Origin: a virus
Lineage: Duplodnaviria > Heunggongvirae > Uroviricota > Caudoviricetes
DNA: 38,820 nt
Reading direction: 5' to 3' (one strand)
Virus record (IMG/VR): IMGVR_UViG_2908572912_000003
The notes under the pieces are model-generated. The model was not told the DNA's origin. It saw nothing but the letters and a program-made list of their open reading frames with translations, and searched no databases. Of the stretch, positions 1 to 26,743 are shown piece by piece; position 1 is the first letter of the stretch; every line of letters starts with the position of its first letter. The translations under genes and the position numbers were made by a program.

Positions 1-265
<265 letters not shown>

Positions 266-273
<8 letters not shown>

Positions 274-553
274 GCGTCCTGTCTCCCCGGTCTTTCTGCT
301 GGGCGAGAAAATCGCGGCACAGGCCTTTGGCTTTCAGCTCATTCAGCACAAAATCAATATCTTCATTCAGGTAGCTGAAAATATGCGGAATGTAGAGCTG
401 ATGCAGGCCGGAGAGTTCACGGTGAATCAAATCACCCCCAACAAACTGGGATACGGCGCTGGCGCGGTTGAGCTTATGGTAAGCCTCAATGCTGAGGTGT
501 TCACGGGCGTCATGACGCGCTGAGACGGTCTGAGGGGCTTTTTTATTACGCAC
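266..553 (-). CDS. Hypothetical small protein (95 aa) of the satellite leftward operon
   Basis: GTG start at 553-551 preceded by GGAGG at a 6-nt spacing; the start lies 5 nt upstream of the Icd-like stop, consistent with translational coupling; charged, protein-like composition. Confidence 0.45.
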
Positions 554-743
554 GGGACACCTCCACCACCGGCAGACGGGCAGCAAGGGAGAGCACATAG
601 TCACGGACAAGGGAACGGCGGGCACTGCGTTCATCACCGGCGACGGTGCGAAGCATGCAGATACGGGGATGACGGTCTGCGCGACGGACAGCCGCAAACA
701 CAAAGACAAATTCAGGGTGTGAGGGGGTAAGGGTTGTAGCCAT
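546..743 (-). CDS. icd: Host cell division inhibitor Icd-like protein (P1 Icd / P4 Kil-like)
   Basis: 65-aa [24 protein letters not shown]...; ATG at 743 preceded by AAGGAGG at an 8-nt spacing. The frame is open upstream to an ATG at 881 ([14 protein letters not shown]...), so a longer Ash-family product (546..881) is an alternative. Confidence 0.55.
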
Positions 744-1096
744 GATGGCAGCCTCCTTGAAGTAACAGTTACAGCTACCACTGGAGTTCCTACGCTCATG
801 GGTGGTAGCCCGGACGGGGGTAGGAATACCGGCCTTCAAGGAAACCGGCCAGCCCGAAGGCTGCCCCGCCCGGACCACCATTATCTGACAGAGGCTACGG
901 TTTAAAAAACACAGCCAGAAAAACAGGTGTGCCGAAGCAACGACGTAAAAAAAGACGCATGGCGCGTCATATGTCGCCTTGAAGTAACTCGGGTTCCTAC
1001 GCCCGGCTGCCGATTTTGCGGCAGCGGGAAAACTATATCCGCAAATGCCGGAAAAAGGCAAGCCAGAAAAAGGGACTTTTTGCAGGATGGGTATCA

Positions 1097-1363
1097 TCAC
1101 GCGTCGTACCCCCGTTTGCGTCCGGCAATGCGCCCGGCCATCCATGCGGTGACTTCAGAGTGCAGCCAGGCCACATTTTTACCGCCAAGACTCACCTGCG
1201 GCGGAAATTCCCCCTTACGGATGAGTTCATAGATGGTCGAGCGTGACAGGCCGCACAGGTGCATCACTTCCGGCAGACGTAAAAAACGCTCCTGCGTGAT
1301 GTCCGGCAGCGGCATCAGTGGCGTCACAGGGGCGGGAGACGGGGAAGAAAAAACAGCTTGCAT
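1097..1363 (-). CDS. alpA: AlpA-family phage transcriptional regulator (Vis/excisionase-like helix-turn-helix)
   Basis: 88-aa ORF containing ...[45 protein letters not shown]..., as recalled for AlpA/Vis-type regulators; ATG with GAGGT upstream. Confidence 0.8.
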
Positions 1364-1641
1364 CGGGCTACCTCGTTAATGTCCATACAGCACCGGATAA
1401 GTCCGTCCGGCTTCGGGTAGCGCTTTATTTTGTGAATATTTTCAGCAGACGCAACAGGGGGGATTTGTTCCGGCAGCCTTACAATGGCTGTGTGTTTTTT
1501 GCACATCAGCGCCAGATAGCTTTAAAACGCTCTGGAAGGAGCTGGAAAAAATTATAGTGAAATGCAAATTGTTTTTTCTTATTTATTTCAGTTAATTAAT
1601 AAAAATAAAAAGTAATAAACAGCACAAAAAGTCCATCCACG

Positions 1642-1746
1642 GGTGAACAGTGGTGAACAGACGGTGAACAGTCATTACTGCGATTGTTCACCCTTTAACT
1701 TACTGTATTACTTATCTTTTTTCTTAAGGTGAACAGAGGTGAACAG
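1642..1746. repeat. P4-type iteron cluster (ori/crr-like alpha-protein binding sites)
   Basis: Five direct copies of GGTGAACAG (1642-1671 and 1728-1746) plus one inverted copy (TGTTCACC at 1685-1692) in the AT-rich alpA-sid intergenic region; the core matches the recalled P4 type I iteron TGTTCACC. Confidence 0.6.
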
Positions 1747-1824
1747 TAAAATATAAAAAAACAAACAGTAAGCCGGTTTTTCCTGCGACCTTTTCCTGGC
1801 TTGCCGGTCTGAGGATGAGTCTCC

Positions 1825-1842
1825 TGTGTCAGGGCTGGCACA
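1825..1842 (+). promoter_or_regulatory. Putative Ogr/Delta activator site (TGT-N12-ACA) of the sid late promoter
   Basis: TGT gtcagggctggc ACA dyad lies about 80 bp upstream of the sid ATG, which would place the start site near 1888 if centred at -55; a TCACAAT -10-like element follows. Confidence 0.4.
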
Positions 1843-1914
1843 TCTGCAATGCGTCGTGTTGTTGTCCGGTGTACGTCACAATTTTCTTAACCTGAAGTGA
1901 CGAGGAGCCGGAAA

Positions 1915-2649
1915 ATGTCTGACAACACCATCCCTGAATATCTGCAACCCGCGCTGGCACAACTGGAAAAGGCCAGAGCCGCCCATCTTGAGAACGCCCG
2001 CCTGATGGATGAGACCGTCACGGCCATTGAACGGGCAGAGCAGGAAAAAAATGAGCTGGCGCAGGCCGACGGAAACGACGCTGACGACTGGCGCACGGCC
2101 TTTCGTGCAGCCGGTGGTGTCCTGAGCGACGAGCTGAAACAGCGCCACATTGAGCGCGTGGCACGCCGGGAGCTGGTACAGGAATATGACAATCTGGCCG
2201 TGGTGCTGAATTTTGAACGTGAACGCCTGAAAGGGGCGTGTGACAGCACGGCCACCGCCTACCGGAAGGCACATCATCACCTGCTGAGTCTGTATGCAGA
2301 GCATGAGCTGGAACACGCCCTGAATGAAACCTGTGAGGCGCTTGTCCGGGCAATGCATCTGAGCATCCTGGTACAGGAAAATCCGCTCGCCAACACCACC
2401 GGCCATCAGGGCTACGTCGCGCCGGAAAAGGCTGTCATGCAGCAGGTGAAATCATCGCTGGAACAGAAAATAAAACAGATGCAAATCAGCCTCACCGGCG
2501 AGCCGGTTCTCCGGCTGACCGGACTGTCAGCGGCAACACTCCCGCACATGGATTATGAGGTGGCAGGCACACCGGCACAGCGCAAGGTGTGGCAGGACAA
2601 AATAGACCAGCAGGCAGCAGAGCTGAAGGCCAGAGGGCTGCTGTCATGA
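1915..2649 (+). CDS. sid: Capsid size determination protein Sid (P4-like external scaffold)
   Basis: 244-aa ORF, matching the recalled P4 Sid length; ATG at 1915 with GAGGAG at an 8-nt spacing; stop overlaps the delta start (ATGA); sid-delta-psu order. Confidence 0.7.
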   Translation: MSDNTIPEYLQPALAQLEKARAAHLENARLMDETVTAIERAEQEKNELAQADGNDADDWRTAFRAAGGVLSDELKQRHIERVARRELVQEYDNLAVVLNFERERLKGACDSTATAYRKAHHHLLSLYAEHELEHALNETCEALVRAMHLSILVQENPLANTTGHQGYVAPEKAVMQQVKSSLEQKIKQMQISLTGEPVLRLTGLSAATLPHMDYEVAGTPAQRKVWQDKIDQQAAELKARGLLS

Positions 2650-3146
2650 TTTACTGCCCGTCGTGTGGACATGTTGCTCACACCCGTCGCGCACATTTCA
2701 TGGACGATGGCACCAAGATAATGATTGCACAGTGCCGGAATATTTATTGCTCTGCGACATTTGAAGCGAGTGAAAGCTTTTTCTCTGACTGTAAAGATTC
2801 AGGAATGGAATACATTTCAGGCAAACAGAGATACCGCGATTCACTGACGTCAGCCTCCGGCAGCATGAAACGCCCGAAAAGAATGCTTGTTACCGGATAT
2901 TGTTGTCGGAGATGTAAAGGCCTTGCACTGTCAAGAACATCGCGGCGTCTGTCTCAGGAAGTCACCGAGCGTTTTTATGTGTGCACGGATCCGGGCTGTG
3001 GTCTGGTGTTTAAAACGCTTCAGACCATCAACCGCTTCATTGTCCGCCCGGTCACGCCGGACGAACTGGCAGAAAGCCTGCATGAAAAACAGGAACTGCC
3101 GCCAGTACGCTTAAAAACACAATCATATTCGCTGCGTCTGGAATGA
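2646..3146 (+). CDS. delta: Late gene activator Delta (tandem Ogr-like zinc-finger domains)
   Basis: 166 aa with two Ogr-type zinc-finger modules (MIYCPSCGH...CRNIYC and YCCRRCKG...YVCTDPGCG). Confidence 0.85.
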   Translation: MIYCPSCGHVAHTRRAHFMDDGTKIMIAQCRNIYCSATFEASESFFSDCKDSGMEYISGKQRYRDSLTSASGSMKRPKRMLVTGYCCRRCKGLALSRTSRRLSQEVTERFYVCTDPGCGLVFKTLQTINRFIVRPVTPDELAESLHEKQELPPVRLKTQSYSLRLE

Positions 3147-3219
3147 GGGCTGCCGGTTAACACCGGCCGTCGCCGCACACCGTATTTTTATTCTTCAGCA
3201 TGATGAGAAAGAGATAACG

Positions 3220-3792
3220 ATGGAAAGCACAGCCTTACAGCAGGCCTTTGACACCTGTCAGAATAACAAAGCAGCATGGCTGCAACGCAAAAATGAGCTG
3301 GCAGCGGCCGAACAGGAATATCTGCGGCTTCTGTCAGGAGAAGGCAGAAACGTCAGTCGCCTGGACGAATTACGCAATATTATCGAAGTCAGAAAATGGC
3401 AGGTGAATCAGGCCGCCGGTCGTTATATTCGTTCGCATGAAGCCGTTCAGCACATCAGCATCCGCGACCGGCTGAATGATTTTATGCAGCAGCACGGCAC
3501 AGCACTGGCGGCGGCACTGGCACCGGAGCTGATGGGCTACAGTGAGCTGACGGCCATTGCCCGAAACTGTGCCATACAGCGTGCCACAGATGCCCTGCGT
3601 GAAGCCCTTCTGTCCTGGCTTGCGAAGGGGGAAAAAATTAATTATTCCGCACAGGATAGCGACATTTTAACGACCATCGGATTCAGGCCTGACGCGGCTT
3701 CGGTGGACGACAGCCGTGAAAAATTCACCCCTGCGCAGAACATGATTTTTTCGCGTAAAAGTGCGCAACTGGCATCACGTCAGTCTGTGTAA
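3220..3792 (+). CDS. psu: Polarity suppression protein Psu (capsid decoration / Rho antagonist)
   Basis: 190 aa, matching the recalled P4 Psu length; sits immediately after delta and before the cos-like site. Confidence 0.8.
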   Translation: MESTALQQAFDTCQNNKAAWLQRKNELAAAEQEYLRLLSGEGRNVSRLDELRNIIEVRKWQVNQAAGRYIRSHEAVQHISIRDRLNDFMQQHGTALAAALAPELMGYSELTAIARNCAIQRATDALREALLSWLAKGEKINYSAQDSDILTTIGFRPDAASVDDSREKFTPAQNMIFSRKSAQLASRQSV

Positions 3793-3828
3793 AATTTCCC
3801 GAAAATCCGCCTGTTTTTACTGAAAAAA

Positions 3829-3853
3829 GCCATGCATCGATAAGGTGCATGGC
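3829..3853 (+). terminator. Possible terminator hairpin after psu
   Basis: GCCATGCA...TGCATGGC inverted repeat followed by TTT; the U-tract is weak. Confidence 0.3.
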
Positions 3854-3956
3854 TTTGCATGCGTTTCCCTGCCTCATTTTCTGCAGACCGCGCCATTCCC
3901 GGCGCGGTCTGAGCGTGTCAGTGCAACTGCATTAAAACCGCCCCGCAAAGCGGGCG

Positions 3957-3975
3957 GGCGTGGCGGGGAGAGCAT
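3957..3975. other. P2/P4-type cohesive end (cos) site, variant
   Basis: GGCGTGGCGGGGAGAGCAT matches the recalled 19-nt P2/P4 cos GGCGAGGCGGGGAAAGCAC at 16 of 19 positions and lies downstream of psu as in P4. Confidence 0.4.
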
Positions 3976-4136
3976 TGCGCGCTGCCTGCAGAGCTAAATT
4001 ATTTTATTCATCCAATTTTAGTGATGGTTGGGACGGGCTGAATTTCGTGAATTTCCGAAAAAGAGTTAAAGTTTTCATCCCAATTAACATAAAACTATAT
4101 TGCGGATGTTTGCTTTAGCCCTTTCTCTCGTAAGAT

Positions 4137-6368
4137 TCATAAAAGTATTGGCCCTTTATTAAAATCATTGGTTTTGAAGTTTATTTCAAAGTGTTTGTAT
4201 ATTCGAGCCGGTTTTTCAGCAAAAAGTTCGTTTGCAGTTACGATGAATGCCGGGATATCCAGTTCTTTAGCATTAAGATACTCTATTGTTTTAATGATTC
4301 GCTCATCCTCCTTGCTGAGGAGACATGAAAACATAATAAAGTCACAATTCACCAGTGCGGCTATCTTGAGAAGTTCGTCGATTTGCTTGGTGCTGAATGT
4401 AGCATTAGACTTGCATTCGCATAGGCCCAATTTATGACCAATCTTCACAAAAACATCGATGTCAGATATTAGTTTTGTTTCTTTAAATACTTCATAGTTG
4501 GATTCATAACTAAAATGGTTATAGCCTTGTTTATTAATGTAATTTATTAATAATAAAGTGGCTAATTGACCTTGGTCTACCGCGCGGGCTACTAGTTGAT
4601 TTAACTTATAGTGGTCGTTTAGTACTTTCCCGTTATCGAATAAAGGTATGTTAATCACGTTCCCACATTCGACGCAGTGGTTTATCCGTTGTAAGGTTTC
4701 CAAGGGAAACCATAGCATTGCTGAACAATGCTCACATTGGAAATGCTTCCCTCTTAATAAAATGTTTGCATTATATAAGTTTTGCAACTTCCCTTGGTAG
4801 AGTGCGGGTGATGTGTTTTTGTCTTTTAATTTATTCTCTATGGTTTCCATAGGAATAATGGTGGATGATAACGATATGTCGCCTCGCTCTTTTAGAGTGC
4901 CAATGTGAGAAATTAAGTCATCGTGTGAAATATTATCTTCAAGATTAGGAAATGCCTTTTTAACAAGTCGTTCTGTCCTTGTATGCGGGGTCAGCGATAC
5001 CAATAAATCAAATATTTTTTTGTCGCTAATTAATTTAGCGTTATCAACTCCGCCGAGTAGTTGTATTAATTGCTCTAAAATAAACGTTTTTGCTGTTTGC
5101 TTTAATGTGAGACTATAATGGTGAAAATGTGAGTGTAGTAAATCAACAAATGAAGGTAGTTTGAATGTTTCAGTTATTCCTGATGTGCTGTAAGGAGAGA
5201 AATGTTTGAAGTACTTGGATAACCCCTTCTTGGATAAGCGTGTAAAGTGGTGCGAAAACATTGAGTTATCTACGAGGTTATCAGAAAAACAATGGCCTAA
5301 AAAATATTTTTTGGGATAGGATAGTTCTGCTGGCCCTCTAACTTCAAAAACAAATCCTCCTCCAAAACCTATATCAGCGAATGTCTTTTCATTAGGGTGA
5401 GTTAGGGTTTTGATGTCTGATGGGTCTGTGAGATATTGGTTATGTTCAAAATTGGTCCATCTTTCTTTATTACTTGGGAAGTAGTATTTGTCAGCAATAA
5501 TATATTCATTGCTTGAAAGGTTAGACGGTAATTTATTTATTTCGTTTTCATTGCTTACGACCAATATGGTTTCATTAGATATTATCTCTCCATATCTCTC
5601 AATTTCTTCAAGCGGCAACCAAGCTAATTTGGCATAGTTATAGCTGTTTCTGGTGTTCCAAAAGTAAAGAATGAAATTGAAGTCAGACGAGTGTGAGATA
5701 AACAGATAATCCTTGTCTTTATCTGCAAAAAAACCTTTATTATTATGGTTTTTGTCATAGATACTTGATGATGTATATGCAGAGCCTATAGCGTTGGTTA
5801 AATTGTGATATTTTGTTTTGTTTTCGAATATATTTGATTTTATTTTATTAGGGTCGGCGATGCATGAAATGGTTACATCTTGAAAAATTGATGGCATTCT
5901 CTTTAAGTGGACATAGTTTCTTTTATCTATTACACCAAAGTTTAAAGCGAGGAATAACGAGTTGGCAGTATATTCAATATTTGATGATGCATAAACTTTA
6001 CTAGGTATTAATGTTGGGTCTTTTGTGGCTAAATAAGGAGTGCTAGAGAACGTAAAAATTGGAGAGCAAAAGTTTAGTAAATTATAGTTAGTTGACTTGG
6101 AATTGTAAGTTATAGCATTAAAGAATTCTGAAATGGTTTCATCTTCAAGGTTTGAATAGTTGAGTACAACATCAGGATCATAGCTATCAACAAGTGTCTT
6201 GTTTATTTCTGAAAGCAATGAATTATCATTTTTTAAAATTAAATTTAGGATGCCATCAATATCTTGCATTAACGACATGAATATTGATAGGAATATTTCA
6301 TGATCATCTTCGATGATAAACAACTTTCGAATGGGACGGACTTTGGTTGTAACAAATGAATTATACAC
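4137..6368 (-). CDS. Large uncharacterised cargo protein (743 aa) with a C-terminal zinc ribbon and PD-(D/E)xK-like nuclease motifs; candidate anti-phage defence protein
   Basis: Uninterrupted 2.2-kb ORF, visibly AT-rich against GC-richer flanks; GTG start at 6368 with AAGGAA upstream, 25 bp downstream of the integrase stop; CEHC (4725-4736) and CVEC (4665-4676) cysteine pairs; DIDVFV followed by ECK (4410-4418). No Walker A motif seen. Confidence 0.75.
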   Translation of the reverse strand: MYNSFVTTKVRPIRKLFIIEDDHEIFLSIFMSLMQDIDGILNLILKNDNSLLSEINKTLVDSYDPDVVLNYSNLEDETISEFFNAITYNSKSTNYNLLNFCSPIFTFSSTPYLATKDPTLIPSKVYASSNIEYTANSLFLALNFGVIDKRNYVHLKRMPSIFQDVTISCIADPNKIKSNIFENKTKYHNLTNAIGSAYTSSSIYDKNHNNKGFFADKDKDYLFISHSSDFNFILYFWNTRNSYNYAKLAWLPLEEIERYGEIISNETILVVSNENEINKLPSNLSSNEYIIADKYYFPSNKERWTNFEHNQYLTDPSDIKTLTHPNEKTFADIGFGGGFVFEVRGPAELSYPKKYFLGHCFSDNLVDNSMFSHHFTRLSKKGLSKYFKHFSPYSTSGITETFKLPSFVDLLHSHFHHYSLTLKQTAKTFILEQLIQLLGGVDNAKLISDKKIFDLLVSLTPHTRTERLVKKAFPNLEDNISHDDLISHIGTLKERGDISLSSTIIPMETIENKLKDKNTSPALYQGKLQNLYNANILLRGKHFQCEHCSAMLWFPLETLQRINHCVECGNVINIPLFDNGKVLNDHYKLNQLVARAVDQGQLATLLLINYINKQGYNHFSYESNYEVFKETKLISDIDVFVKIGHKLGLCECKSNATFSTKQIDELLKIAALVNCDFIMFSCLLSKEDERIIKTIEYLNAKELDIPAFIVTANELFAEKPARIYKHFEINFKTNDFNKGPILL

Positions 6369-6393
6369 TTTTTCGCATTCCTTTTATTGTTTT

Positions 6394-7596
6394 TTAATTA
6401 CTGGCTGATAGTGACTTAACGTAATTCCCCCACCAACTCATTAGCTCTATCCTTTGTTCTAAATAAATTGAACGATTATAAGCTCTACGTACTTCATTTT
6501 TATCTGTGTGCGCTAATGCTGACTCTATGACATCCGCATTCATCCCCGCTTCATTCATCGCTGTACTCGCAATAGACCTTAAACCATGAGCAACAAGCTT
6601 TCCACCATATCCAATTCTCTTCAGCGCAGCATTAGCCGTCTGGCTATTCATTGGTTGCTTTGGGTCATTCCTGCTCGGAAAAACGTGCTCTCGATTGGCA
6701 CTAATAGGTTTCATCACTTCGAGAATCTCTAATGCCTGAGTTGAGAGAGGAACTATGTGCTCACGTTTAGCCTTCATTCGTTCGGCCGGAATCGTCCATA
6801 GCTTTGTTTCGAGATCGATTTCAGCCCACCGAGCACCGGAGGCCTCAGAAGGGCGCACAAGGGTCAGGAGTTGCCATTCGATTAGACAGCGAGTCGGAAC
6901 AGACAGATTTGACATGACTAAAGAACGCATCAGCTTCGGCAATTCTTCTGGCCGCAACGTCGGCATGTTTTGCTTTTTGGGCTTCTCAAAGGCCATGCCA
7001 ACACCGGATGCTGGATTGGCATCAATCAGACCAGTGTTTACGGCATAAATCATGATTTCGTTAATACGCTGCACCAGTCGACGTACAGTCTCAAGCGCCC
7101 CACGTGCTTTTATTGGCTCAAGGGCTTCAACCAAAGTTCGGGCTTTGATTTGCTGAACGGGGATCTCACCGATGGCAGGGAATACATCTTTCTCCAGTGA
7201 ACGCCAAATGTCTTTTGCGTAATCAGGGGTAACGCTTTTGCTTTTGAGATGGAACCAGTTAGCGGCGACCGTTGAAAAAATACTGTCCAGAGCGATTTGC
7301 TGCTGTTCCTCTGCAACTTCGGCCTGAATTTGTGGGTCAATTCCGTTGGCTAACAAGGCAAGGTAATCCGCTCTTAACCCTCGGGCGTCAGCAAGTGAAA
7401 GGGCGGGGAAAGCACCTAGCCCCATCATTGTCCGCTGTTTTGTCGCCGGACGTTGATAACGGAAACGCCAGAGCTTTTTCCCGCTGGTTTTCACTATCAG
7501 GAAAAGGCCATCGCCATCATGCAGCGTTAGATCCTTCTCTAACGCTTTAGCGCGCAGAACTTCGGTGTTGGTCAGGGGGCGTGTTGTCCGTGCCAC
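6394..7596 (-). CDS. int: P4-type tyrosine integrase
   Basis: 400 aa; N-terminal arm-binding region (GLFLIVKTSGKKLWRFRYQ) and C-terminal catalytic region (HGLRSIAST...AHTD...RAYNR); GTG start with AAGGAG upstream; adjacent to the att core. Confidence 0.9.
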   Translation of the reverse strand: MARTTRPLTNTEVLRAKALEKDLTLHDGDGLFLIVKTSGKKLWRFRYQRPATKQRTMMGLGAFPALSLADARGLRADYLALLANGIDPQIQAEVAEEQQQIALDSIFSTVAANWFHLKSKSVTPDYAKDIWRSLEKDVFPAIGEIPVQQIKARTLVEALEPIKARGALETVRRLVQRINEIMIYAVNTGLIDANPASGVGMAFEKPKKQNMPTLRPEELPKLMRSLVMSNLSVPTRCLIEWQLLTLVRPSEASGARWAEIDLETKLWTIPAERMKAKREHIVPLSTQALEILEVMKPISANREHVFPSRNDPKQPMNSQTANAALKRIGYGGKLVAHGLRSIASTAMNEAGMNADVIESALAHTDKNEVRRAYNRSIYLEQRIELMSWWGNYVKSLSASN

Positions 7597-7618
7597 TGTG
7601 GTCGCTCCTTCATGAATT

Positions 7619-7937: not shown

Positions 7938-8561
7938 ATGACAATACAGGAAATAATTCAGCAACGTAATATTCGTAGCTTGTTTCATTTTACACATAGC
8001 GATAATCTAACTTCCATTTTAGATAATGGCCTTATGTCTCGTTCAGAACTTGATAATGAAAATAATGAATATAATTATAATGATGAAGAAAGGATTGATG
8101 GTCATCCAGATGCGATTTGTTTGTCCGTAAGTTACCCTAATGCAAAAATGTTTTATAAATATAGATGTTTAAAGCCTGGGGACTGGGTTATATTAGAAAT
8201 CAATCCATCTGTTCTTTGGGCTAAGGATTGCGCTTTTTATCCTACCAACGCAGCTTCGAATAACGTTCGTTTTATAAATCTTGATTTGATGAAAGGAGCT
8301 GAGGCATTTAGTGCTTTGTTTTCAGAGAATGTTTTTGGGATTCAGAGAGATGTAAACCTTCCAAGTGAGTATACGACGGATGTTCAAGCTGAAATACTGG
8401 TATTTGAAAAAATTCCTCCCTCATATATTATAAGCACTTTTCACCCTAACAAAGAATCTGCTGAACATTTCAAGAGATTATATCCACAGACAATACAGAG
8501 ATCTTATGATAATCTTAATGCTAGAACATTTTATTCTCAGAGGCATTATTATTTAGGATAA
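7938..8561 (+). CDS. DarT-like DNA ADP-ribosyltransferase toxin (DUF4433-like)
   Basis: 207 aa, AT-rich; N-terminal LFHFTHSDNLTSILDNGLMS resembles the recalled DarT NAD-binding motif; candidate catalytic Glu in AEILVFE near residue 150-155; a partner ORF follows 4 bp downstream. Confidence 0.5.
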   Translation: MTIQEIIQQRNIRSLFHFTHSDNLTSILDNGLMSRSELDNENNEYNYNDEERIDGHPDAICLSVSYPNAKMFYKYRCLKPGDWVILEINPSVLWAKDCAFYPTNAASNNVRFINLDLMKGAEAFSALFSENVFGIQRDVNLPSEYTTDVQAEILVFEKIPPSYIISTFHPNKESAEHFKRLYPQTIQRSYDNLNARTFYSQRHYYLG

Positions 8562-8564
8562 GTT

Positions 8565-9254
8565 ATGGCCGTTAGACCTGTTTTCGTCCCTACAAACGCA
8601 GGGAACTTACTATCGATCACGAAGGATGTGGATTTTCCTTGGGCTCCTGGTATGTCTAAAACGCAAAAGCAAAAATCGATCAGGGCGTTACATACAGCAG
8701 CGAATGAGCAGGGATTGAACTCTTTGTTGGAAATTTCTAGTAAATCCGAAGATGCGCTGGGGGTAGCACTTAGTGCATTTAATCTAAGAATAAAGACGAA
8801 AAGACTTGGGAAAGAGTTTACAGTTGAATCTGCATTTCAAGCAAGTAAAGTATTTGAAATGGGAGGACCATATGTCGATATCTTAGATAAAAGCTCGATA
8901 GAAGCAAAAAAAGATATGAGATTAAAGGAATCTGGGGGATTAGTTAACTTCAAATTTTATAATACAATATGGCCCATTGTCCCCAGGACTGCTTTTTATG
9001 ATTGGTTATATTTGAGTGCGCTCAATCAAAACAAAAATCTAGCACTCCATCTATTAAATTTTGATGGATTTACTGATATTGAATTTAATCCAGCGAAATC
9101 TATTAATTGCCAAGCCAGAGCAGCTGCACTTTTTGTCTCTTTAGTAAGACGAAATATGTTAGATGATGTTTTATCTTCAAAGGATGGTTTTTTATCAAAA
9201 TTAGCATCTCATTATGGTGTTGAAAATTATTCTATTCAACATACATTGATATGA
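8565..9254 (+). CDS. Partner of the DarT-like gene; possible NADAR (YbiA-like) domain antitoxin
   Basis: 229 aa with AGGA ribosome-binding site; LSAFNLRIKTKRLGKEFTVESAFQASKVF resembles the YbiA/NADAR segment FSNFAAWPIKVDGKTWPTSEHYFQAQKF; no macrodomain motifs (NAAN/GGGV) found. Confidence 0.4.
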   Translation: MAVRPVFVPTNAGNLLSITKDVDFPWAPGMSKTQKQKSIRALHTAANEQGLNSLLEISSKSEDALGVALSAFNLRIKTKRLGKEFTVESAFQASKVFEMGGPYVDILDKSSIEAKKDMRLKESGGLVNFKFYNTIWPIVPRTAFYDWLYLSALNQNKNLALHLLNFDGFTDIEFNPAKSINCQARAAALFVSLVRRNMLDDVLSSKDGFLSKLASHYGVENYSIQHTLI

Positions 9255-12736: not shown

Positions 12737-12801
12737 AATAAGTCCTCACTATATAAAGATATTCAGTGATGAGATAAATAATCAGTTAATTAAAAACGAT
12801 A

Positions 12802-13164
12802 TTAACGACCTGCTGCGCGGAGTTTTCCGTCAGGTTCACCGGCAAGAGTCAGTAACTGTCCCTGGTCTTCCTGCAGAATAGTCAGGCGACCACCGCGATT
12901 GACATACATCGGCGTTTCGGTGGTGTCTTCTTCGGAAATTTTCCCGCGGTTAGTCGGGCGAACATATGAGAGTTTGTGTTTGATTTTCACACGGTTCTCA
13001 TCAAATGGTTCGATTTCCAGGTTGAGTGAGACCTTACCTTTGGTTTTCGTGTTCATCACACCGGAAGCGACTTCACTGAGAACTGCGCCGATTTTGGTTT
13101 CAAATACGCCGCCGTCCAGCTCCCCGATAAATGCCTGCACGTCAGTACTGCGTTCGCTAGCCAT
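12802..13164 (-). CDS. Hypothetical phage early protein
   Basis: 120-aa ORF starting MASERSTDVQ... with GAGGAG upstream; the longer upstream extension to 13482 has junk-like composition. Confidence 0.5.
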   Translation of the reverse strand: MASERSTDVQAFIGELDGGVFETKIGAVLSEVASGVMNTKTKGKVSLNLEIEPFDENRVKIKHKLSYVRPTNRGKISEEDTTETPMYVNRGGRLTILQEDQGQLLTLAGEPDGKLRAAGR

Positions 13165-13632
13165 TTTGCTGCTCCTCATCATATCGACCCTGCAAGGCCG
13201 ATTAGTTTCTCCACAAAACAGAGAAGAACACCTGCGGTGGCAGCCGCCCGGATGGATTGGGTTATGAGCCCGTCGTCCGGTGATGCTCTTCTCTGTTTTG
13301 TAAAAAGGACGGTACCAGCCGGAAGCAAGGGTACAAACTGGTACCGCCAGGACTACACACAGCATAAAGTTGTGGTGCCGGGTGCCTCCCGGTGCCTGGC
13401 GAAGGTTGCACACCAGGCGGGTGGGTATCCACAGAAGGTCGACTGTCAGCCTCAACCTTAACCCGCGTGCGCTGAGCCGCATTCACCACAACGCTAAGGA
13501 TTCTCTCTGGTTGAAAATACTTAGCTGTTATGTGCCTGCTTTTAGCCACATCAGGCGAGGTGGACCTAGTTATTCCCCAACAACAAGGATTCGGTTAATC
13601 TGGTTATCCCCAACAACGCAAAAGGAAAAGAA

Positions 13633-14067
13633 ATGTCCGGTAATATCTATACGCTGTACAAATCCCACTGTGAAAATGTTGGAAAGTATCGGGGCATTGA
13701 AATCAGTGGGGTAGTGTCATCAGCCGAAATAAGCAAAGTTGAATCAAGGGCAACATTACTTACTCTTTTGGACCTTGTCTTACATGAGCACCGGAAGAAA
13801 TTCGGCACTCCCTATAATCAGTTGAATGGGAAAAAGGCTCTGGTTCACCTTATTCTGATGAAGCATCACTGGATGCCAAAACAGATTAATGAGATGAAAT
13901 TTGATGAACTTCTTCTTTCAATTCAGGATGAACTCACACTTGATAAAATAAGCGTAACCGCCCAGAAATTTTTAGATTATCGAGACTGGAGATCACAAAT
14001 TCATCACTTTGATGATTTTGACGAAAATGAATGGGATCCTAATTTGTCTGCACAATATCTAAAGTAA
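13633..14067 (+). CDS. Hypothetical acidic protein (144 aa), opposite strand to the early operon
   Basis: AT-rich ORF with AAGGAAAAG ribosome-binding site; ends 5 bp before the IS1 left end; no recognisable motifs. Confidence 0.5.
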   Translation: MSGNIYTLYKSHCENVGKYRGIEISGVVSSAEISKVESRATLLTLLDLVLHEHRKKFGTPYNQLNGKKALVHLILMKHHWMPKQINEMKFDELLLSIQDELTLDKISVTAQKFLDYRDWRSQIHHFDDFDENEWDPNLSAQYLK

Positions 14068-14127
14068 CATCCGGTGATGCTGCCAACTTACTGATTTAGT
14101 GTATGATGGTGTTTTTGAGGTGCTCCA

Positions 14128-14403
14128 GTGGCTTCTGTTTCTATCAGCTGTCCCTCCTGTTCAGCTACTGACGGGGTGGTGCGTAACGGCAAAAGCACCG
14201 CCGGACATCAGCGCTATCTCTGCTCTCACTGCCGTAAAACATGGCAACTGCAGTTCACTTACACCGCTTCTCAACCCGGTACGCACCAGAAAATCATTGA
14301 TATGGCCATGAATGGCGTTGGATGCCGGGCAACTGCCCGCATTATGGGCGTTGGCCTCAACACGATTTTACGTCACTTAAAAAACTCAGGCCGCAGTCGG
14401 TAA
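14128..14403 (+). CDS. insA: IS1 InsA
   Basis: [43 protein letters not shown]... matches recalled IS1 InsA. Confidence 0.85.
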
Positions 14404-14825
14404 CCTCGCGCATACAGCCGGGCAGTGACGTCATCGTCTGCGCGGAAATGGACGAACAGTGGGGATACGTCGGGGCTAAATCGCGCCAGCGCTGGCTGTT
14501 TTACGCGTATGACAGGCTCCGGAAGACGGTTGTTGCGCACGTATTCGGTGAACGCACTATGGCGACGCTGGGGCGTCTTATGAGCCTGCTGTCACCCTTT
14601 GACGTGGTGATATGGATGACGGATGGCTGGCCGCTGTATGAATCCCGCCTGAAGGGAAAGCTGCACGTAATCAGTAAGCGATATACGCAGCGAATTGAGC
14701 GGCATAACCTGAATCTGAGGCAGCACCTGGCACGGCTGGGACGGAAGTCGCTGTCGTTCTCAAAATCGGTGGAGCTGCATGACAAAGTCATCGGGCATTA
14801 TCTGAACATAAAACACTATCAATAA
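14322..14825 (+). CDS. insB: IS1 InsB reading frame (expressed as the InsAB' transposase by -1 frameshift)
   Basis: ...[36 protein letters not shown]... matches recalled IS1 InsB. Confidence 0.8.
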
Positions 14826-14840
14826 GTTGGAGTCATTACC

Positions 14841-15011
14841 GGCAAAACCATTCCGGGTAACGATGATGTGGTGAAGCCCGTCAAAGAGCAGGCGGAAAAC
14901 AAAATCGATGGTGCAGTTGCGCTGATTATGGCGGTTGGCAGAGCCATGCTGTACGAGAAAGAAGACACGCTGTCTGACCACATTGAGTCCTATGGGATCC
15001 GCTCGCTTTAA
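14841..15011 (+). pseudogene. 3' remnant of a terminase large-subunit-like gene, truncated by IS1
   Basis: Frame is open from the first base after IS1 (…[24 protein letters not shown]…, 56 codons) and ends just before the portal gene; no start codon or N-terminal portion present. Confidence 0.4.
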
Positions 15012-21974: not shown

Positions 21975-22330
21975 TGGCCCGTATCGGGGGAACCTGTTAT
22001 TTCAAAATTGACGGTCAGCAGCTATCGCTGACCGGCGGCATTGAGGTGCCCATGAACAGGACGGTCAATGATGACATCATCGGCCTGGACGGTTCAGTGG
22101 ACCGCAAGGAAACTCACCGTGCGCCTTATGTCAAAGGGACCTTCAAGGTGCCGAAGAATTTTCCGGTGAGCAAAATCACCTCATCTGATGAGATGACCAT
22201 CACTGCCGAGCTGGCGAACGGTCAGGTCTATGTACTGTCGTCTGCCTGGCTGCACGGCGAAGCGAACCATAATGCCGAAGAAGGCACGGTCGATCTTGAG
22301 TTCCACGGTGAAGAAGGGGATTACCAGTAA
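21974..22330 (+). CDS. Tail tube protein
   Basis: 118-aa ORF directly after the sheath gene. Confidence 0.7.
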   Translation: MARIGGTCYFKIDGQQLSLTGGIEVPMNRTVNDDIIGLDGSVDRKETHRAPYVKGTFKVPKNFPVSKITSSDEMTITAELANGQVYVLSSAWLHGEANHNAEEGTVDLEFHGEEGDYQ

Positions 22331-22599
22331 TGAAAGAGCTTGAGTTAAAGAAACCGATTACCGCTCATGGCGAGACACTCTCCGTACTGGAGTTTGATGA
22401 GCCCACCGGGAAAGATGTCCGCGAGCTGGGGTATCCCTACCAGATGAATCAGGATGAGTCCGTCAGACTTCTGGCGCATGTGGTATCGAAATACATTGTG
22501 CGGCTGGCGAAAGTGCCGCAAAGCTCTGTCGACCAGATGTCTCCGGCAGACTTGAATGCAGCGGCGTGGCTTGTGGCTGGTTTTTTCCTCCAGGCCTGA
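22330..22599 (+). CDS. Tail assembly chaperone, with a probable -1 frameshifted extension to 22748
   Basis: 89-aa ORF upstream of the tape measure gene; T_TTT_TTC slippery heptamer near 22580-22587; the -1 frame stays open to 22748. Confidence 0.6.
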   Translation: MKELELKKPITAHGETLSVLEFDEPTGKDVRELGYPYQMNQDESVRLLAHVVSKYIVRLAKVPQSSVDQMSPADLNAAAWLVAGFFLQA

Positions 22600-22740
22600 C
22601 GGCTGAATACCTCACTGATCGCTTCTTTGACTGCGCCAGCTACTGGCGCATTAATCCCTTCGAATTGCTGAATATGCCGATCAGTGAAATTCCCTTGCTG
22701 GTCAGTCAGGCAAACAGGATAGAGCAGGAGAAACGCACAC

Positions 22741-24582
22741 ATGGCTGAATTTGAGCTTAAGGCGTTGATCACCGGTGTCGACAGGCTTTCTCCCGCGCTG
22801 TCGAAAATGCAAAAGAAAATCCGGGGATTTAAACGCCAGGCGGAAGAAGCGTCACAGGGTGGGCTGGCGCTTGGTGGCGGACTGGCAGCGGGTCTGACGC
22901 TTTCTCTGAAATCTTATGCCGATCAGGAAAACGCCGCCACCGGGCTGAAAGTCGCCATGATGGATGCGAACGGCGAGGTTGGAAAGAGCTTTCAGGACAT
23001 CAATAAACTGGCTATTGGCCTGGGTAACCAGCTACCCGGTACAACAGCTGATTTTCAGAACATGATGCAGATGCTGGTGCGTCAGGGGATCCCGGCAGAA
23101 AACATTCTTGGCGGTGTGGGTAAAGCGACAGCTTTTCTTGCGGTACAACTGAAAAAAACACCGGAAGCGGCTGCTGAGTTTGCCGCAAAGATGCAGGATG
23201 CTACCGGAACGGCGTCAGAAGACATGATGGGGCTGTTCGACACTATCCAGAAGGCGTTTTATCTGGGCGTTGACGATACCAACATGTTGTCCTTCTTCAC
23301 TAAAACCAGCTCTGTTCTGAAGATGGTGAACAAGGACGGTCTTCAGGCTGCACAGAGCCTTGCCCCCATCAGCGTCATGATGGATCAGATGGGGATGAAC
23401 GGGGAGTCGGCAGGTAATGCCCTGCGAAAAGTTATCCAGTCCGGATTAAGCGTTAAGAAAATCAGGGACGTCAATAAAGTTATGGCCCGTCAGAAACTCG
23501 GGGTACAGCTCGATTTTACTGACGGCAAAGGAAGTTTTGGCGGTCTTGATAACATGTTTAAGCAACTGGCAAAGCTGCGAAAACTTACCGACGTTAAGCG
23601 AACAGGTGTACTTAAGGCAATATTTGGTGATGATGCCGAAACCCTTCAGGTGGTCAATGCGCTGATCGATAAAGGAAAGGATGGTTACGATCAGATCCAG
23701 CAAAAGATGAATAAACAGGCCAGCCTGAATAAACGTGTTCAGGCACAGCTTGGTACGCTGTCCAACCTGTGGGAGGCAATGACGGGGACCGCAACTAACG
23801 GCCTTGCGGCTATTGGCGGCGCATTTTCTGGTGACGCCAAAAATATCACGCAATGGCTGGGGGAGTTGGGGGAAAAATTCACGAAGTTTGCGGATGAAAA
23901 TCCCCGGGTTATTCGCGGCGTCGTCGGGCTTGCTGCCGGTCTTGCGATTCTGAAACTGGGATTGATGGGCGTGGGCAGTGCCATCAGCATTGTCAGCAGG
24001 ATCATGTCGATGACGCCGATTGGCATGATTGCGACGGCGATAGCCCTGGCTGCGGGATTAATTATCACTAACTGGGATGTTGTCGGACCTTATTTCAAGA
24101 AGCTCTGGGAAACCATTGGTCCTTATTTTGAGGCTGGCTGGGAACTCCTTAAGAAAGTTTTTGCCTGGTCGCCGATGGGGATGGTGATCAATAACTGGGG
24201 GCCGGTTGTTAAGTGGTTTCAGGATATGTGGGACAAGCTGAAGCCAATTATTGAGTGGTTTACCGACAGTTCCGGTGACACGGTCGATGCCATTAACTCT
24301 GCGCAGTGGGGCGCGGGTGCTTATGATGCTTATGGGACGGGAATACCGGCACGGGGATACACTCCTTATCCGGCGGTGGATCCGGCTCAGGCAAACAACG
24401 CCTCCGATGCCACAGGCCCGAATCCCTTCATGATTAATAAAGCTTCTGCGCCAAAAGTTGATGGTGAGATCAAGGTATCTTTTGTGAATTCGCCTCCGGG
24501 TATGCGGGTTATGGAAACGCGATCCAGCGGTATCGACGTGAATCACGACGTTGGCTACACCCGATTTGGTATGGGGGGCTGA
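22741..24582 (+). CDS. Tail tape measure protein
   Basis: 613 aa; helical N-terminal part, hydrophobic Gly/Ala-rich central segment (GVVGLAAGLAILKLGLMGVGSAISIVS...). Confidence 0.85.
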   Translation: MAEFELKALITGVDRLSPALSKMQKKIRGFKRQAEEASQGGLALGGGLAAGLTLSLKSYADQENAATGLKVAMMDANGEVGKSFQDINKLAIGLGNQLPGTTADFQNMMQMLVRQGIPAENILGGVGKATAFLAVQLKKTPEAAAEFAAKMQDATGTASEDMMGLFDTIQKAFYLGVDDTNMLSFFTKTSSVLKMVNKDGLQAAQSLAPISVMMDQMGMNGESAGNALRKVIQSGLSVKKIRDVNKVMARQKLGVQLDFTDGKGSFGGLDNMFKQLAKLRKLTDVKRTGVLKAIFGDDAETLQVVNALIDKGKDGYDQIQQKMNKQASLNKRVQAQLGTLSNLWEAMTGTATNGLAAIGGAFSGDAKNITQWLGELGEKFTKFADENPRVIRGVVGLAAGLAILKLGLMGVGSAISIVSRIMSMTPIGMIATAIALAAGLIITNWDVVGPYFKKLWETIGPYFEAGWELLKKVFAWSPMGMVINNWGPVVKWFQDMWDKLKPIIEWFTDSSGDTVDAINSAQWGAGAYDAYGTGIPARGYTPYPAVDPAQANNASDATGPNPFMINKASAPKVDGEIKVSFVNSPPGMRVMETRSSGIDVNHDVGYTRFGMGG

Positions 24583-24586
24583 TACC

Positions 24587-25925
24587 CATAAGCGCTAACT
24601 TAAGGGTTGAACCATCTGAAGAATGCGACGCCTCGGTGCCTCGTTAAGACGATGCCTCGCGTTCTTCAATTGCGTTTTGTAGGCTGTCAGGGATACTGTC
24701 CCACGAATGGCCACCTGTAAGCTCCAGATGACCATTTTTGTTATTCTCCACAACGAGTTAGTTCTTCTTTTCGGATCCGGCACTTCTGGGGGGGAAATCC
24801 AGCGATGGCTGGATTATGTCGTCAATTAAAAATGCGGCGAGTAGATTAGCAAATATCCACGCTTTCGCGAGTTCAGGTTCCTTTGCACGCAAAGCATCCA
24901 GGTGCAGCAAACTTTTGAGCCGCTTAAAAGCCAGTTCAATTTGCCATCGCAGACGGTAACAATCAGCCACTTGCTCTGCTGAATATTCATCTTCCGGTAA
25001 TGATGTTAGCAATAGCACATGGCCCGCTGCTTCCAGCGTTTCCGCCTGAACTACTCGTCCTTTTCGACGATTCTCGCTGAGCAGTCGGGTTTTACTGATT
25101 AATGCTTTTTCGGGAGGAAGTGATACGGCAATGAGACGTGCCGGAAAGGGAGCTCCGGCTTTTTTATTACCTGAATTGCCTATCATTACAGTGGTTTCAC
25201 CGTTCTTACCGCAATCCAGCCCGCGCAGAAAACCCATCATGTCAAAGCGCATTCCTTCTGCAGTTAACCAGCGCAATCCTCGCCAGTGAACCCGGACGAT
25301 ATAATCAGCTTCTCCAAAAGCAAGTGAGCGGATACATTCGGGACGCGAACCGAATCCCCGGTCAGCAATGCGTATCTCGTCTGCCGTTTGCGCAAATCGG
25401 TCCAGCCGTTCAGCGTCTCTGCTGTCGGTTAGCTCAAAATCAGTGAACTGACAGGTATGAGGATCATATCCCATATGTAGTCGCCATTCAGCGCTGCCGC
25501 CCCCGGGCGCACTGATTGCTGTTCCATCGACAAGACGCAATCTCTTTCCGCTTGTACAACCCGTAACTGCGGCGCGTACAGCAAGTGTTTGTGCGGCAAG
25601 TATGCCAAACCAGTCGGCGGCATTCCGCAGCCGCTTCAGGAGAGCCACGTCAGATAATGTTGCAACGTCATGGAGCTGAGCCCATGCAGTGACTTCACGT
25701 AATGACATCCCCCCGGGGCCGTAAGCCAGCCCCAGACGTAGCAGAGTTGCAGCATCACGAATTTCGCGGCGGCGGGTTAGAGCCCCGGCATTACGTGCCG
25801 AAGTATCCAGTTCTTCGGGCTTACCAATATGGGCCAGAATTGCTGACCAGTTATCGTGAGAGTAATTCATCGGCACGTTAAATCATATCAGGCGTAATAC
25901 CACAACCCTTAAGTTAGCGCTTATG
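24587..25925 (-). mobile_element. IS186 (IS4 family) insertion
   Basis: Terminal inverted repeats CATAAGCGCTAACTTAAGGGTTG (24587-) and CAACCCTTAAGTTAGCGCTTATG (-25925); direct repeats GGCTGATACC(C) on both flanks; 1339 bp. Confidence 0.85.
24758..25876 (-). CDS. insL: IS186 transposase (InsL-like, IS4 family)
   Basis: 372 aa containing MNYSHDNWSAILAHIGKPEELDTSARNAG..., matching recalled IS186 transposase. Confidence 0.85.
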   Translation of the reverse strand: MPMNYSHDNWSAILAHIGKPEELDTSARNAGALTRRREIRDAATLLRLGLAYGPGGMSLREVTAWAQLHDVATLSDVALLKRLRNAADWFGILAAQTLAVRAAVTGCTSGKRLRLVDGTAISAPGGGSAEWRLHMGYDPHTCQFTDFELTDSRDAERLDRFAQTADEIRIADRGFGSRPECIRSLAFGEADYIVRVHWRGLRWLTAEGMRFDMMGFLRGLDCGKNGETTVMIGNSGNKKAGAPFPARLIAVSLPPEKALISKTRLLSENRRKGRVVQAETLEAAGHVLLLTSLPEDEYSAEQVADCYRLRWQIELAFKRLKSLLHLDALRAKEPELAKAWIFANLLAAFLIDDIIQPSLDFPPRSAGSEKKN

Positions 25926-26012
25926 GGCTGATACCCCGCTTAAACACGGGTTTTGTCGTTTAGCAGGTTCTTGGTAGGATTAGTCCGATACTTTAATGAT
26001 GGGAATAGGGAT

Positions 26013-26690
26013 ATGAAAGTCTTAACAATTTATTCAGTTGTCGGCATGGCTCTTTTACTCGGGGGATGTACCTCTCCGAAGTACAATTATTTACCAAAAA
26101 CAGAAAATTATAGTGAACCTCCTGTAGGAAGCATTAATACAGCTTATGTCGGTGATTCAATGATTAAGCAGGGGGTGTCACAGAGGTTTGAAGGTCTGAA
26201 GGTTAATGCTCCTGCGAGAATTTCCTGGGCGTATACGATCACTCCGGGGATGCTGAAAAAGGTTGGTGAGGATAACAAGGCTGATTATTACTTTCTCACA
26301 AACGGTGCTGATTCAGCCAATGTGGAAAAGGCAGCCCTTGCCGATATGTGGCAGGGCATCATGGTAGAAAAGAAAAAGAATGCCTTATGTGTAATAACAG
26401 TTTTCGGTGTTACCAACTGTGAAACTAACATGCCTATCGAAAAGGTTACTCTGAATATCAGTGGTGATTCATCTTTCCAGCAAGCTCTGCTTTACAACGG
26501 AAGGGTCGGAAACAAAATCAACATTGGATATCGTGAATTTTCATCGAATACAGCACGCCCGGCCTTCAACAACGATGTTGAGTATGATCTCGCGGAGTCT
26601 AAAACAATTGGCTATAAAGGGGCTAAATTCGAAGTACTTGATGCGAGTAACCAAAGCATAAGGTATCGGGTAATAAGTAACTTTAGATAA
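26013..26690 (+). CDS. Lipoprotein (phage accessory gene)
   Basis: 225 aa; signal peptide with lipobox (MKVLTIYSVVGMALLLGGC); AGGGA ribosome-binding site; its own terminator follows. Confidence 0.65.
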   Translation: MKVLTIYSVVGMALLLGGCTSPKYNYLPKTENYSEPPVGSINTAYVGDSMIKQGVSQRFEGLKVNAPARISWAYTITPGMLKKVGEDNKADYYFLTNGADSANVEKAALADMWQGIMVEKKKNALCVITVFGVTNCETNMPIEKVTLNISGDSSFQQALLYNGRVGNKINIGYREFSSNTARPAFNNDVEYDLAESKTIGYKGAKFEVLDASNQSIRYRVISNFR

Positions 26691-26704
26691 GCGATAATTT
26701 AATG

Positions 26705-26728
26705 AAACCCGCTTCGGCGGGTTTTTTT
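26705..26728 (+). terminator. Rho-independent terminator after the lipoprotein gene
   Basis: AAACCCGC ttcg GCGGGTTT hairpin followed by a T-run. Confidence 0.6.
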
Positions 26729-26743
26729 ATATCCGGAGTTTAT

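Follow-up and report, generated by a model that had tools for sequence, protein, structure and literature searches.

A minus-strand RNA locus ahead of the leftward early operon in an SfIV/SfV/e14-like Escherichia coli prophage

Between yfdP and a divergent 144-aa open reading frame (ORF), the virus record IMGVR_UViG_2908572912_000003 carries some 470 bp (13165–13632) with no evident gene, and the question raised by this locus is what such a stretch might do. The record, 38,820 nucleotides long and referred to here as the window, is an SfIV/SfV/e14-like Escherichia coli prophage truncated by the insertion sequence IS1. A sequence-only reading had described the gap as GC-rich and ORF-free, with a 17-bp inverted repeat and two direct repeats. 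It proposed a regulatory or antitermination RNA, a small RNA (sRNA) or binding sites for a regulator of the 144-aa ORF, and named an Rfam scan and covariation analysis as checks. The base composition (GC fraction 0.55–0.59 in the region versus 0.36–0.47 in the flanks) and both kinds of repeat were borne out, but the main feature, a minus-strand RNA gene at approximately 13522–13300, had been missed. The core of the region is, judged by its sequence, a divergent member of the STnc100/PasD family of prophage sRNA genes. This core (domain D) is followed by an intrinsic terminator (T1) and a conserved leader hairpin (H), and the RNA runs toward yfdP, away from the 144-aa ORF. The element is real, structured and conserved far beyond chance. 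This conclusion is carried by homology in sequence and structure, covariation, the strand on which the helices can form, a constant position with the repressor region on one side and the first left-operon gene on the other, and the absence of coding. As to function, the region is probably the non-coding minus-strand leader of the leftward early operon, composed of an sRNA gene (D plus T1) and a terminator-gated, hairpin-processed H leader for yfdP…xis-int.

Domain D and the STnc100/PasD family

An E-value scan of Rfam matched 13522..13300 on the minus strand to STnc100 (RF02076) with 43.1 bits (E 5e-8), over the full model (1–206 of 206) including its terminator. Both marks of STnc100 are present: the invariant 19-nt core CCGGGAGGCACCCGGCACC at 13392–13374 and the 5' GGUGAAU motif at 13487–13481. 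Sister copies in SfIV, ST64B, phiES15, sal3 and the P1-like phage RCS47 score 35–41 bits against the same model. Scanning viral contigs for CCGGGAGGCACCCGGCACC returned more than 120 loci, a lower bound, which were reduced to 57 diverse representatives. Copies that carry the core together with the canonical CCCCC...GGGG P2 stem score 52–161 bits, whereas the P2 of the window copy reads GCGGCUNAGCGCACGCGG, the mark of a sister subfamily; the score of the window copy is sub-threshold because of this difference in P2. The proposal of an sRNA or other regulatory RNA is supported by this family membership and by strong covariation, and the STnc100 family is extended by a subfamily that lies below the Rfam threshold. 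The parts of D and the terminator that trails it are as follows.

13369..13492, minus strand: domain D, an STnc100-like structured RNA (RF02076 match, invariant core, P1 covariation, pseudoknot test)
13492–13484 with 13377–13369, minus strand: helix P1, which closes D (covariation)
13483–13481, minus strand: junction AAU (sequence)
13480–13478 with 13467–13465, minus strand: helix P2 (structure)
13459–13453 with 13408–13402, minus strand: pseudoknot AAGGUUG with CAACCUU (cognate versus permuted partners)
13417–13411 with 13401–13395, minus strand: helix P5 (structure)
13392–13378, minus strand: hairpin P6, CCGGG-AGGCA-CCCGG, which never varies and abuts the 3' strand of P1
13302..13348, minus strand: intrinsic terminator T1, a 13-bp GC-rich stem (13348–13336 with 13320–13308) followed by C and by UUUUU at 13306–13302 (fold, alignment to the STnc100 model)

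D is a multi-helix pseudoknotted domain closed by P1, with the invariant P6 hairpin stacked on P1. On alignment A1, 87% of the P1 cells are paired, compared with 43–52% when the partners are slid. Positions 5–8 of P1 covary by GC/AU and UA/CG exchanges, pair 6 being GC 41 times and AU 26 times, and pair 7 UA 26 times and CG 20 times. The pseudoknot is a feature defined in the present analysis and not by Rfam, and it goes unmentioned in the text of a recent paper on the family (bioRxiv 10.64898/2026.05.13.724894). In nearly every representative the loop of P5 is complementary to the strand after P2, by way of many unrelated sequences. The partners are AAGGCUGG/UCAGCCUU in phiES15 and UGGUUAU/AUAACCA in RCS47, and CCAGUC/GACUGG, GUGAUACCA/UGGUAUCAC and AGACUGACAAA/UUUGUCAGUCU in other copies. 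MAFFT failed to register P5 and the pseudoknot, and cognate partners were therefore compared with permuted ones. Family-wide, the mean cognate score was 16.96 versus 12.87+/-0.37 for permuted partners, a value reached in 0 of 5000 permutations. Thus P1 and the pseudoknot, like the helices of H described below, covary among homologues. T1 folds with -20.5 kcal/mol (z = -4.2) and aligns to the terminator of the STnc100 model. A covarying pseudoknot together with an invariant stacked hairpin makes D more elaborate than a typical Hfq sRNA composed of a seed and a terminator.

Besides the core and the GGUGAAU motif, D shares with STnc100/PasD the P1 helix, the P5 hairpin, the pseudoknot pattern, the trailing terminator and a home in lambdoid prophages of enterobacteria. 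There are also differences. Canonical STnc100 has a CCCC/GGGG P2 where D has GCG/CGC, and the pseudoknot sequence also differs. Canonical copies are found in the late region after tRNA genes or stx, whereas D heads the leftward early operon beside the repressor and, unlike canonical STnc100, is coupled to H. The function of the STnc100 family is itself unknown. STnc100 is among the most abundant annotated sRNA families of bacterial genomes (PMC9029176), with 11 copies in enterohaemorrhagic E. coli (EHEC) EDL933; expression of copies is documented, including a Northern blot signal for one of them in EHEC (PMC5331693). PasD is abundant in enteropathogenic E. coli in RIL-seq, which captures Hfq-bound RNAs, and was judged to have a common origin with STnc100 (bioRxiv 10.64898/2026.05.13.724894).

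Canonical STnc100 copies lie directly downstream of phage tRNA clusters of two to three genes, often with two to four copies in tandem. Copies at 77–161 bits follow tRNA clusters in L026 (2795–3798), L009 (8044–8560), L017 (2265–4160) and L018 (1142–1942). Two further ideas were considered. The GGCACC core could be taken for part of a sigma-54 promoter, but by eye its spacing is wrong, and this reading was rejected. A link to IpeX was also considered; no non-coding RNA is annotated in the DLP12 prophage of K-12.

Leader hairpin H and its tip

The inverted repeat was taken in the sequence-only reading as part of a single structured region. It is instead the stem of a separate conserved hairpin, H, and it is larger than reported, with 25-nt arms (13213–13237 and 13277–13301) that are 84% complementary. 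H directly follows T1 in the 3' direction, and about 45 nt separate it from the start codon of yfdP downstream.

13208..13306, minus strand: leader hairpin H, a three-way junction of about 100 nt whose 25-bp basal stem includes the inverted repeat (fold, covariation, distribution)
13272–13259, minus strand: tip of arm A of H, CGGGCUCAUAACCC, with loop CUCAUAA at 13268–13262 and CAU at 13266–13264 (sequence)
13250–13235, minus strand: arm B of H (fold)
13162..13203, minus strand: 8-bp small hairpin (13203–13184), Shine-Dalgarno sequence GAGGAG (13177–13172) and yfdP start codon (13164–13162) (sequence, fold, annotation of yfdP by the Prokaryotic Genome Annotation Pipeline, PGAP)

Folded as a minus-strand RNA (13306–13208), H forms 25 consecutive pairs with -51.2 kcal/mol and z = -6.5 versus shuffles, compared with z = -4.4 for the plus strand. 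The pairs between the U-tract of T1 and GGAG in H are G.U or U.A and are workable on the minus strand only. The transcribed strand of H is therefore the minus strand. RNAalifold run on a MAFFT alignment recovered only arm A because divergent copies were misaligned, and the structure was consequently supplied by hand. Across 18 diverse copies, 86% of the cells are paired, while slid controls give 40–55%. In the same copies 18 pairs are changed on both sides versus 8.7 in shuffles, and 0 of 500 shuffles reach the observed value. All helices of H covary, with the exception of the invariant 3-bp apex stem.

These pairs also bear on whether the repeats act as DNA, whether as a protein-binding palindrome, an origin or a recombination site. 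The inverted and direct repeats are intergenic, lie beside the immunity and integration modules and have module breakpoints nearby, as might be expected of such sites. However, the helices are kept by way of G.U pairs, which the other strand or a DNA cruciform would turn into A.C mismatches. Moreover, the sequences of the stems vary widely between copies while pairing is kept, and the pseudoknot covaries. Together these are the signature of a single-stranded RNA and not of a protein-binding DNA site, and a role at the level of DNA is considered very unlikely.

H was searched for by its apical motif, by its 5' arm independently of the apex, and in one genome per species. Viral contigs carry it, as do representative genomes of species from at least 13 Enterobacterales genera: Escherichia, Citrobacter, Enterobacter, Kosakonia, Mixta, Yersinia, Trabulsiella, Buttiauxella, Leclercia, Phytobacter, Pseudescherichia, Pseudocitrobacter and Erwinia. 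No Rfam family matched H in the Rfam scans, and H is a conserved, so far uncatalogued RNA element. It occurs in two arrangements. In the first, a terminator, H, a small hairpin and a ribosome-binding site precede the first gene, which is one of several unrelated genes; a U-tract lies ahead of H in 78 of 106 distinct H loci. In the second, H is fused directly 5' of D, as in RCS47 (twice), L025, L262 and L315. The base of H and P1 are mutually exclusive in these fusion loci, since one strand serves both as the 3' arm of H and as the 5' strand of P1, and it is possible that this exclusivity constitutes a conformational switch. The fusion in RCS47 lies at 3677–4130 on the minus strand of L006, and L365 is also listed as carrying it.

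Arm A ends in CGGGCUCAUAACCC, which matches residues 28–41 of E. coli tRNA-fMet at all 14 positions (tRNA sequence from PMC8887418). It spans the three G-C pairs that mark the initiator tRNA and the anticodon loop CUCAUAA. In a sample of H copies picked without reference to the apex, CGGGCTCATAACCCAATCC is identical in 112 of 125. Divergent tips read GUCAUAU or UUCAUAU, such that the equivalents of U33, C34-A35-U36 and A37 are fixed and those of 32 and 38 vary. In the decayed e14 copy, CAU has changed to AAU. The mimicry is limited to the anticodon arm, and the rest of H is without tRNA-like sequence. ARAGORN found no tRNA or tmRNA gene in 12800–14000, and no Rfam tRNA family matched in the region. 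Operators that mimic tRNA, such as the thrS leader, are the kin type for such an anticodon-like tip. It is conceivable, if rather doubtful, that H is an undescribed cis-regulatory RNA whose tip mimics the anticodon arm of the initiator tRNA, engages a host factor that recognises tRNA-fMet and thereby gates the leftward operon with xis and int. The STnc100-type pseudoknotted D, with its interchangeable interiors, would then be a partner module and not an ordinary base-pairing sRNA. Candidate partners of the tip are the 30S P site with initiation factor 3, methionyl-tRNA synthetase, or an anticodon nuclease specific for tRNA-fMet, for example the VapC of Shigella and Salmonella. A hairpin with an initiator-tRNA-like tip offers a concrete, testable handle on the control of early-left transcription in these prophages.

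The apical motif ACGGGCUCAUAACCCAAUC also occurs in metagenome-assembled genomes far outside the Enterobacterales, at about 5401 (minus strand) in L354 (Acidobacteriaceae) and about 5753 (minus strand) in L347 (Deltaproteobacteria). There it is closed by an unrelated local stem, and no Rfam family covers these sites.

The ymfH frame, the direct repeats and module boundaries

The absence of ORFs claimed for the region was true only in part. ORFs of 74–226 aa cross it mechanically, and PGAP annotates 13180–13490 on the minus strand as a frameshifted hypothetical protein; several tests nonetheless speak against coding. The K-12 e14 counterpart of the region, 89.7% identical, is annotated ymfH and has an intact 103-aa ORF over the homologous stretch. 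A clone overexpressing ymfH triggered RcaT, the toxin of retron-Sen2, in a screen (bioRxiv 10.1101/2020.06.22.160242). The locus could on these grounds be a decayed protein gene, a pseudogene of the ymfH family, as the PGAP annotation has it. However, the K-12 ORF is open only because the invariant core has lost one base, and the core bears a second change as well (GGGAGGCA to GGGGGCA and CCCGGC to CCCGAC). The deletion falls within the ymfH frame, and it is the intact RNA version in the window that PGAP calls frameshifted. An intact ymfH frame is not maintained across homologues, being shifted in the window and open in K-12 through the 1-nt loss. The frame would traverse P1, the pseudoknot, T1 and H, and the substitutions among homologues are compensatory in the helices. 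The lengths of D modulo three are distributed 22/20/14 across the family, with no multiple-of-three pattern. None of the ORFs of the region matches Pfam, and the 95-aa minus-strand ORF, the only one run against PHROGs, has no match there.

A decayed protein gene, a possibility that the sequence-only reading had itself allowed for, is therefore highly improbable. The ymfH locus is best read as an RNA locus, and the K-12 copy as itself a decayed D-T1-H RNA. The ymfH clone necessarily overexpresses the D-T1-H RNA too and, ymfH being an RNA locus, the effect on the retron could come from RNA. The annotation of ymfH, and of the frameshifted copies in many E. coli genomes that carry the region, should be corrected to an RNA locus. 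The K-12-type e14 ymfH is at 4002–4313 in L003, homologous to approximately 13180–13490 of the window.

The direct repeats, TATTCCCCAACAAC at 13571–13584 and TTATCCCCAACAAC at 13604–13617, lie between D and the 144-aa ORF.

13567..13623, no strand assigned: two direct repeats, which on the minus strand read GUUGUUGGGGA(A)UAAC and are degenerate copies of the P1/junction motif GUUGUGGUGAAU
13633..14067, plus strand: 144-aa ECs1072-family ORF (phrog_5286, function unknown), divergent from the RNA and with no functional link to it established

The repeat 14-mer has three matches in the window, compared with 0.28 expected by chance. The repeat family includes a further copy at 13481–13503, which is the closing-helix strand of D, and the 3' arm of H holds another copy of the P1/junction motif, GUUUUGUGGAGAAAC. 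Homology with other phages is lost at about 13175–13202, just 3' of H, where first genes are swapped; at 13349, just 5' of T1; and at 13563, 13603 or 13617. Between 13349 and P1, other phages carry different interiors under the same P1 (GUUGUGGU.../...ACCACAAC). In the slot that P1 (GUUGUGGUG/CACCACAAC) closes, at least four further unrelated interiors occur, namely the mEp460 type and at least three more. In the mEp460-type interior the loops of P2 (GCUGAU) and P6 (AUCAGC) are complementary, which hints at contact between the two loops as in the tRNA elbow. Variants of the slot were seen in L213 (phage mEp460; 2760–2900, minus strand), L206, L230, L224 and L239. On the simplest reading, the direct repeats would be vestiges of a duplication of the unit and would act as recombination joints between phage modules.

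The sequence-only reading had taken the direct repeats, possibly as plus-strand RNA, for operator sites in the control of translation or transcription of the 144-aa ECs1072 ORF. The second repeat ends 10 nt ahead of the start codon, right beside the ribosome-binding site; every occurrence of the ECs1072 ORF comes with strictly conserved repeats; and two copies spaced 33–34 nt would suit a dimeric or cooperative binder. However, this conservation is uninformative, since every ECs1072 homologue from viral contigs shows about 99% identity to the others, and covariation cannot test repeats that are invariant in all ECs1072-linked loci. No operator sign was found: the motif is absent from the cI/cro region of SfIV, including its operators. 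The repeats resemble the P1 motif of the opposite strand, and homology breaks at their edges, which fits recombination scars at module breakpoints. They also lack a tandem array of the kind found in type III toxin-antitoxin systems, and the ECs1072 ORF has no Pfam or PADLOC match. An operator role for the ECs1072 ORF draws no support from these comparisons, and it is regarded as improbable. A type III toxin-antitoxin (ToxI-like) reading of the repeats was rejected: TRF found no tandem array at the repeats, only 14–16 nt of each period of about 34 nt are alike, and the ORF is without the matches just named. The ECs1072 ORF almost always adjoins D in viral contigs. A literature search on ECs1072/Z1337 and on sRNAs of ST64B returned nothing relevant.

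Transcription, proposed function and kinship with known leaders

The gap is flanked by yfdP on the minus strand (ATG at 13164) and by the 144-aa ORF on the plus strand. The 601 bp from 13100 to 13700, used as a query, are 100% identical to E. coli AR_0369 and about 99% identical to the Shigella phages SfIV and SfV. In the intact relatives SfIV, SfV, ST64B, 118970_sal3, phiES15 and e14, the homologous stretch lies between the cI-like repressor region and the first leftward early gene. The leftward early operon, yfdP-yfdQ-yfdR-...-xis-int, terminates in xis-int, and in phages of the SfV/e14/ST64B type the RNA heads the operon toward these two genes. YfdP matches phrog_204. According to the annotation, IS1 sits between the 144-aa ORF and a C-terminal remnant of the terminase, and the stretch from cI to the start of the terminase gene is missing.

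Other features of the window lie apart from the RNA locus. IS1A (about 14080–14850) is directly 3' of the 144-aa ORF and abuts the terminase remnant, and a second insertion sequence, the IS4-like IS421, splits the tail region (24758–25876). A P4-like satellite lies beside the prophage (1–7600), with Rfam matches to C4 antisense RNA (798–1038, minus strand), isrK and c4-a1b1 target sites. Among the satellite genes named in the annotation are those for an Icd-like protein, an ogr/Delta-like zinc finger, a polarity suppression protein and an integrase. The AR_0369 annotation places a DarT ssDNA ADP-ribosyltransferase with a DarT1-associated NADAR antitoxin (7938–9254, plus strand) in the interval from the satellite to the integrase gene of the prophage.

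D needs a promoter of its own: the SfV annotation has a rho-independent terminator on the strand of D, immediately upstream of it, and in the window and SfIV the gene upstream of D lies on the other strand. A candidate was found by eye.

13527..13554, minus strand: putative weak sigma-70 promoter, with -35 CTGATG (13554–13549), a 16-nt spacer and -10 CATAAC (13532–13527)

The block that holds this candidate (13565–13523) is conserved in SfV and e14, though their upstream neighbours differ. Transcription would begin at this weak promoter, at about 13554–13527. Most transcripts would stop at T1, freeing an sRNA of about 220 nt as is documented for other members of the family, and those that read through would carry H as the 5' untranslated region of yfdP...xis-int. 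By analogy, the 25-bp stem of H is a likely site for a double-strand RNase of the RNase III type, where processing or stability would set the expression of the downstream operon. In K-12, an operon named intE-xisE-ymfH is grouped with other e14 genes in the YmfT iModulon (PMC12132413).

Several observations weigh against this reading of the region as an sRNA gene followed by a processed leader. The 43.1 bits of the STnc100 match fall short of the curated gathering score of 47 for RF02076, and an Rfam scan at the gathering threshold was silent. The consensus promoter scan did not call the weak CTGATG/CATAAC candidate, and the promoter upstream of K-12 ymfH was active in just a single condition and a single replicate (PMC12132413). 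The loop of T1 is 15 nt long and is followed by just five U's after the stem, and the terminator scan did not call T1. The transcript at this locus is a prediction from sequence; a discrete transcript of about 160–210 nt and association with Hfq are documented for other copies of the family (PMC5331693; bioRxiv 10.64898/2026.05.13.724894). Cleavage of H by RNase III and its effect on yfdP, xis and int are proposals by analogy. Finally, neither an ordinary base-pairing sRNA nor a plain processing hairpin accounts for the extreme invariance of the 19-nt core and of the H tip.

This invariance is part of what favours a different mechanism, antitermination or attenuation. Nascent D and/or H, with or without a phage protein, would alter RNA polymerase so that it passes T1 and the later terminators of the left operon. 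The RNA would serve as nutL and N do in lambda or as put RNA does in HK022, and the sRNA would arise as a by-product, much as the terminated pR' transcript gives StxS. The site is promoter-proximal and ahead of a long operon in phages without an annotated N, and a terminator is built into the unit. The invariant core and H tip suggest contact with a conserved host machine, and P6, as read from the sequence, has a boxB-like geometry with a 5-bp stem and a pentaloop. There are precedents both for a terminated leader that serves as an sRNA (PMC7547250) and for put RNA (PMC9378689), which acts through the zinc-binding domain of the beta' subunit of RNA polymerase. However, canonical copies lie mid-operon, downstream of tRNA clusters and stx2B and sometimes as tandems of two to four, a layout better suited to independent sRNA genes. 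In P1-like phages H is upstream of D, not downstream, and no partner protein is evident, the neighbouring genes being variable. No family motif was found in HK022 22000–30000, the one stretch searched, in which the position of put is unchecked. Antitermination is a live alternative but seems unlikely, and an sRNA gene with a processed leader is preferred. The invariance of the core and the H tip is left unexplained by either model and is the most interesting open point of this locus.

The closest parallels to the proposed arrangement are found among structured leaders of long operons. The N-leader of lambda consists of nutL and an RNase III hairpin, and the metY-nusA-infB leader of E. coli consists of a tRNA gene, terminators, an RNase III hairpin and the mRNA. 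The locus described here resembles both in having a promoter-near structured RNA, a terminator and a long perfect hairpin before the first cistron of a long operon. It is unrelated to them in sequence, neither N nor nut boxes were identified in it, and the RNase III cut in H is a prediction. A second parallel is with StxS, the terminated pR' leader that acts as an Hfq sRNA (PMC7547250), and with HK022 put (PMC9378689); each is the leader RNA of a lambdoid operon, with a promoter-proximal terminator as its end point or its target. The put RNA is about 70 nt long with two stems, whereas D is about 125 nt long and contains a pseudoknot.

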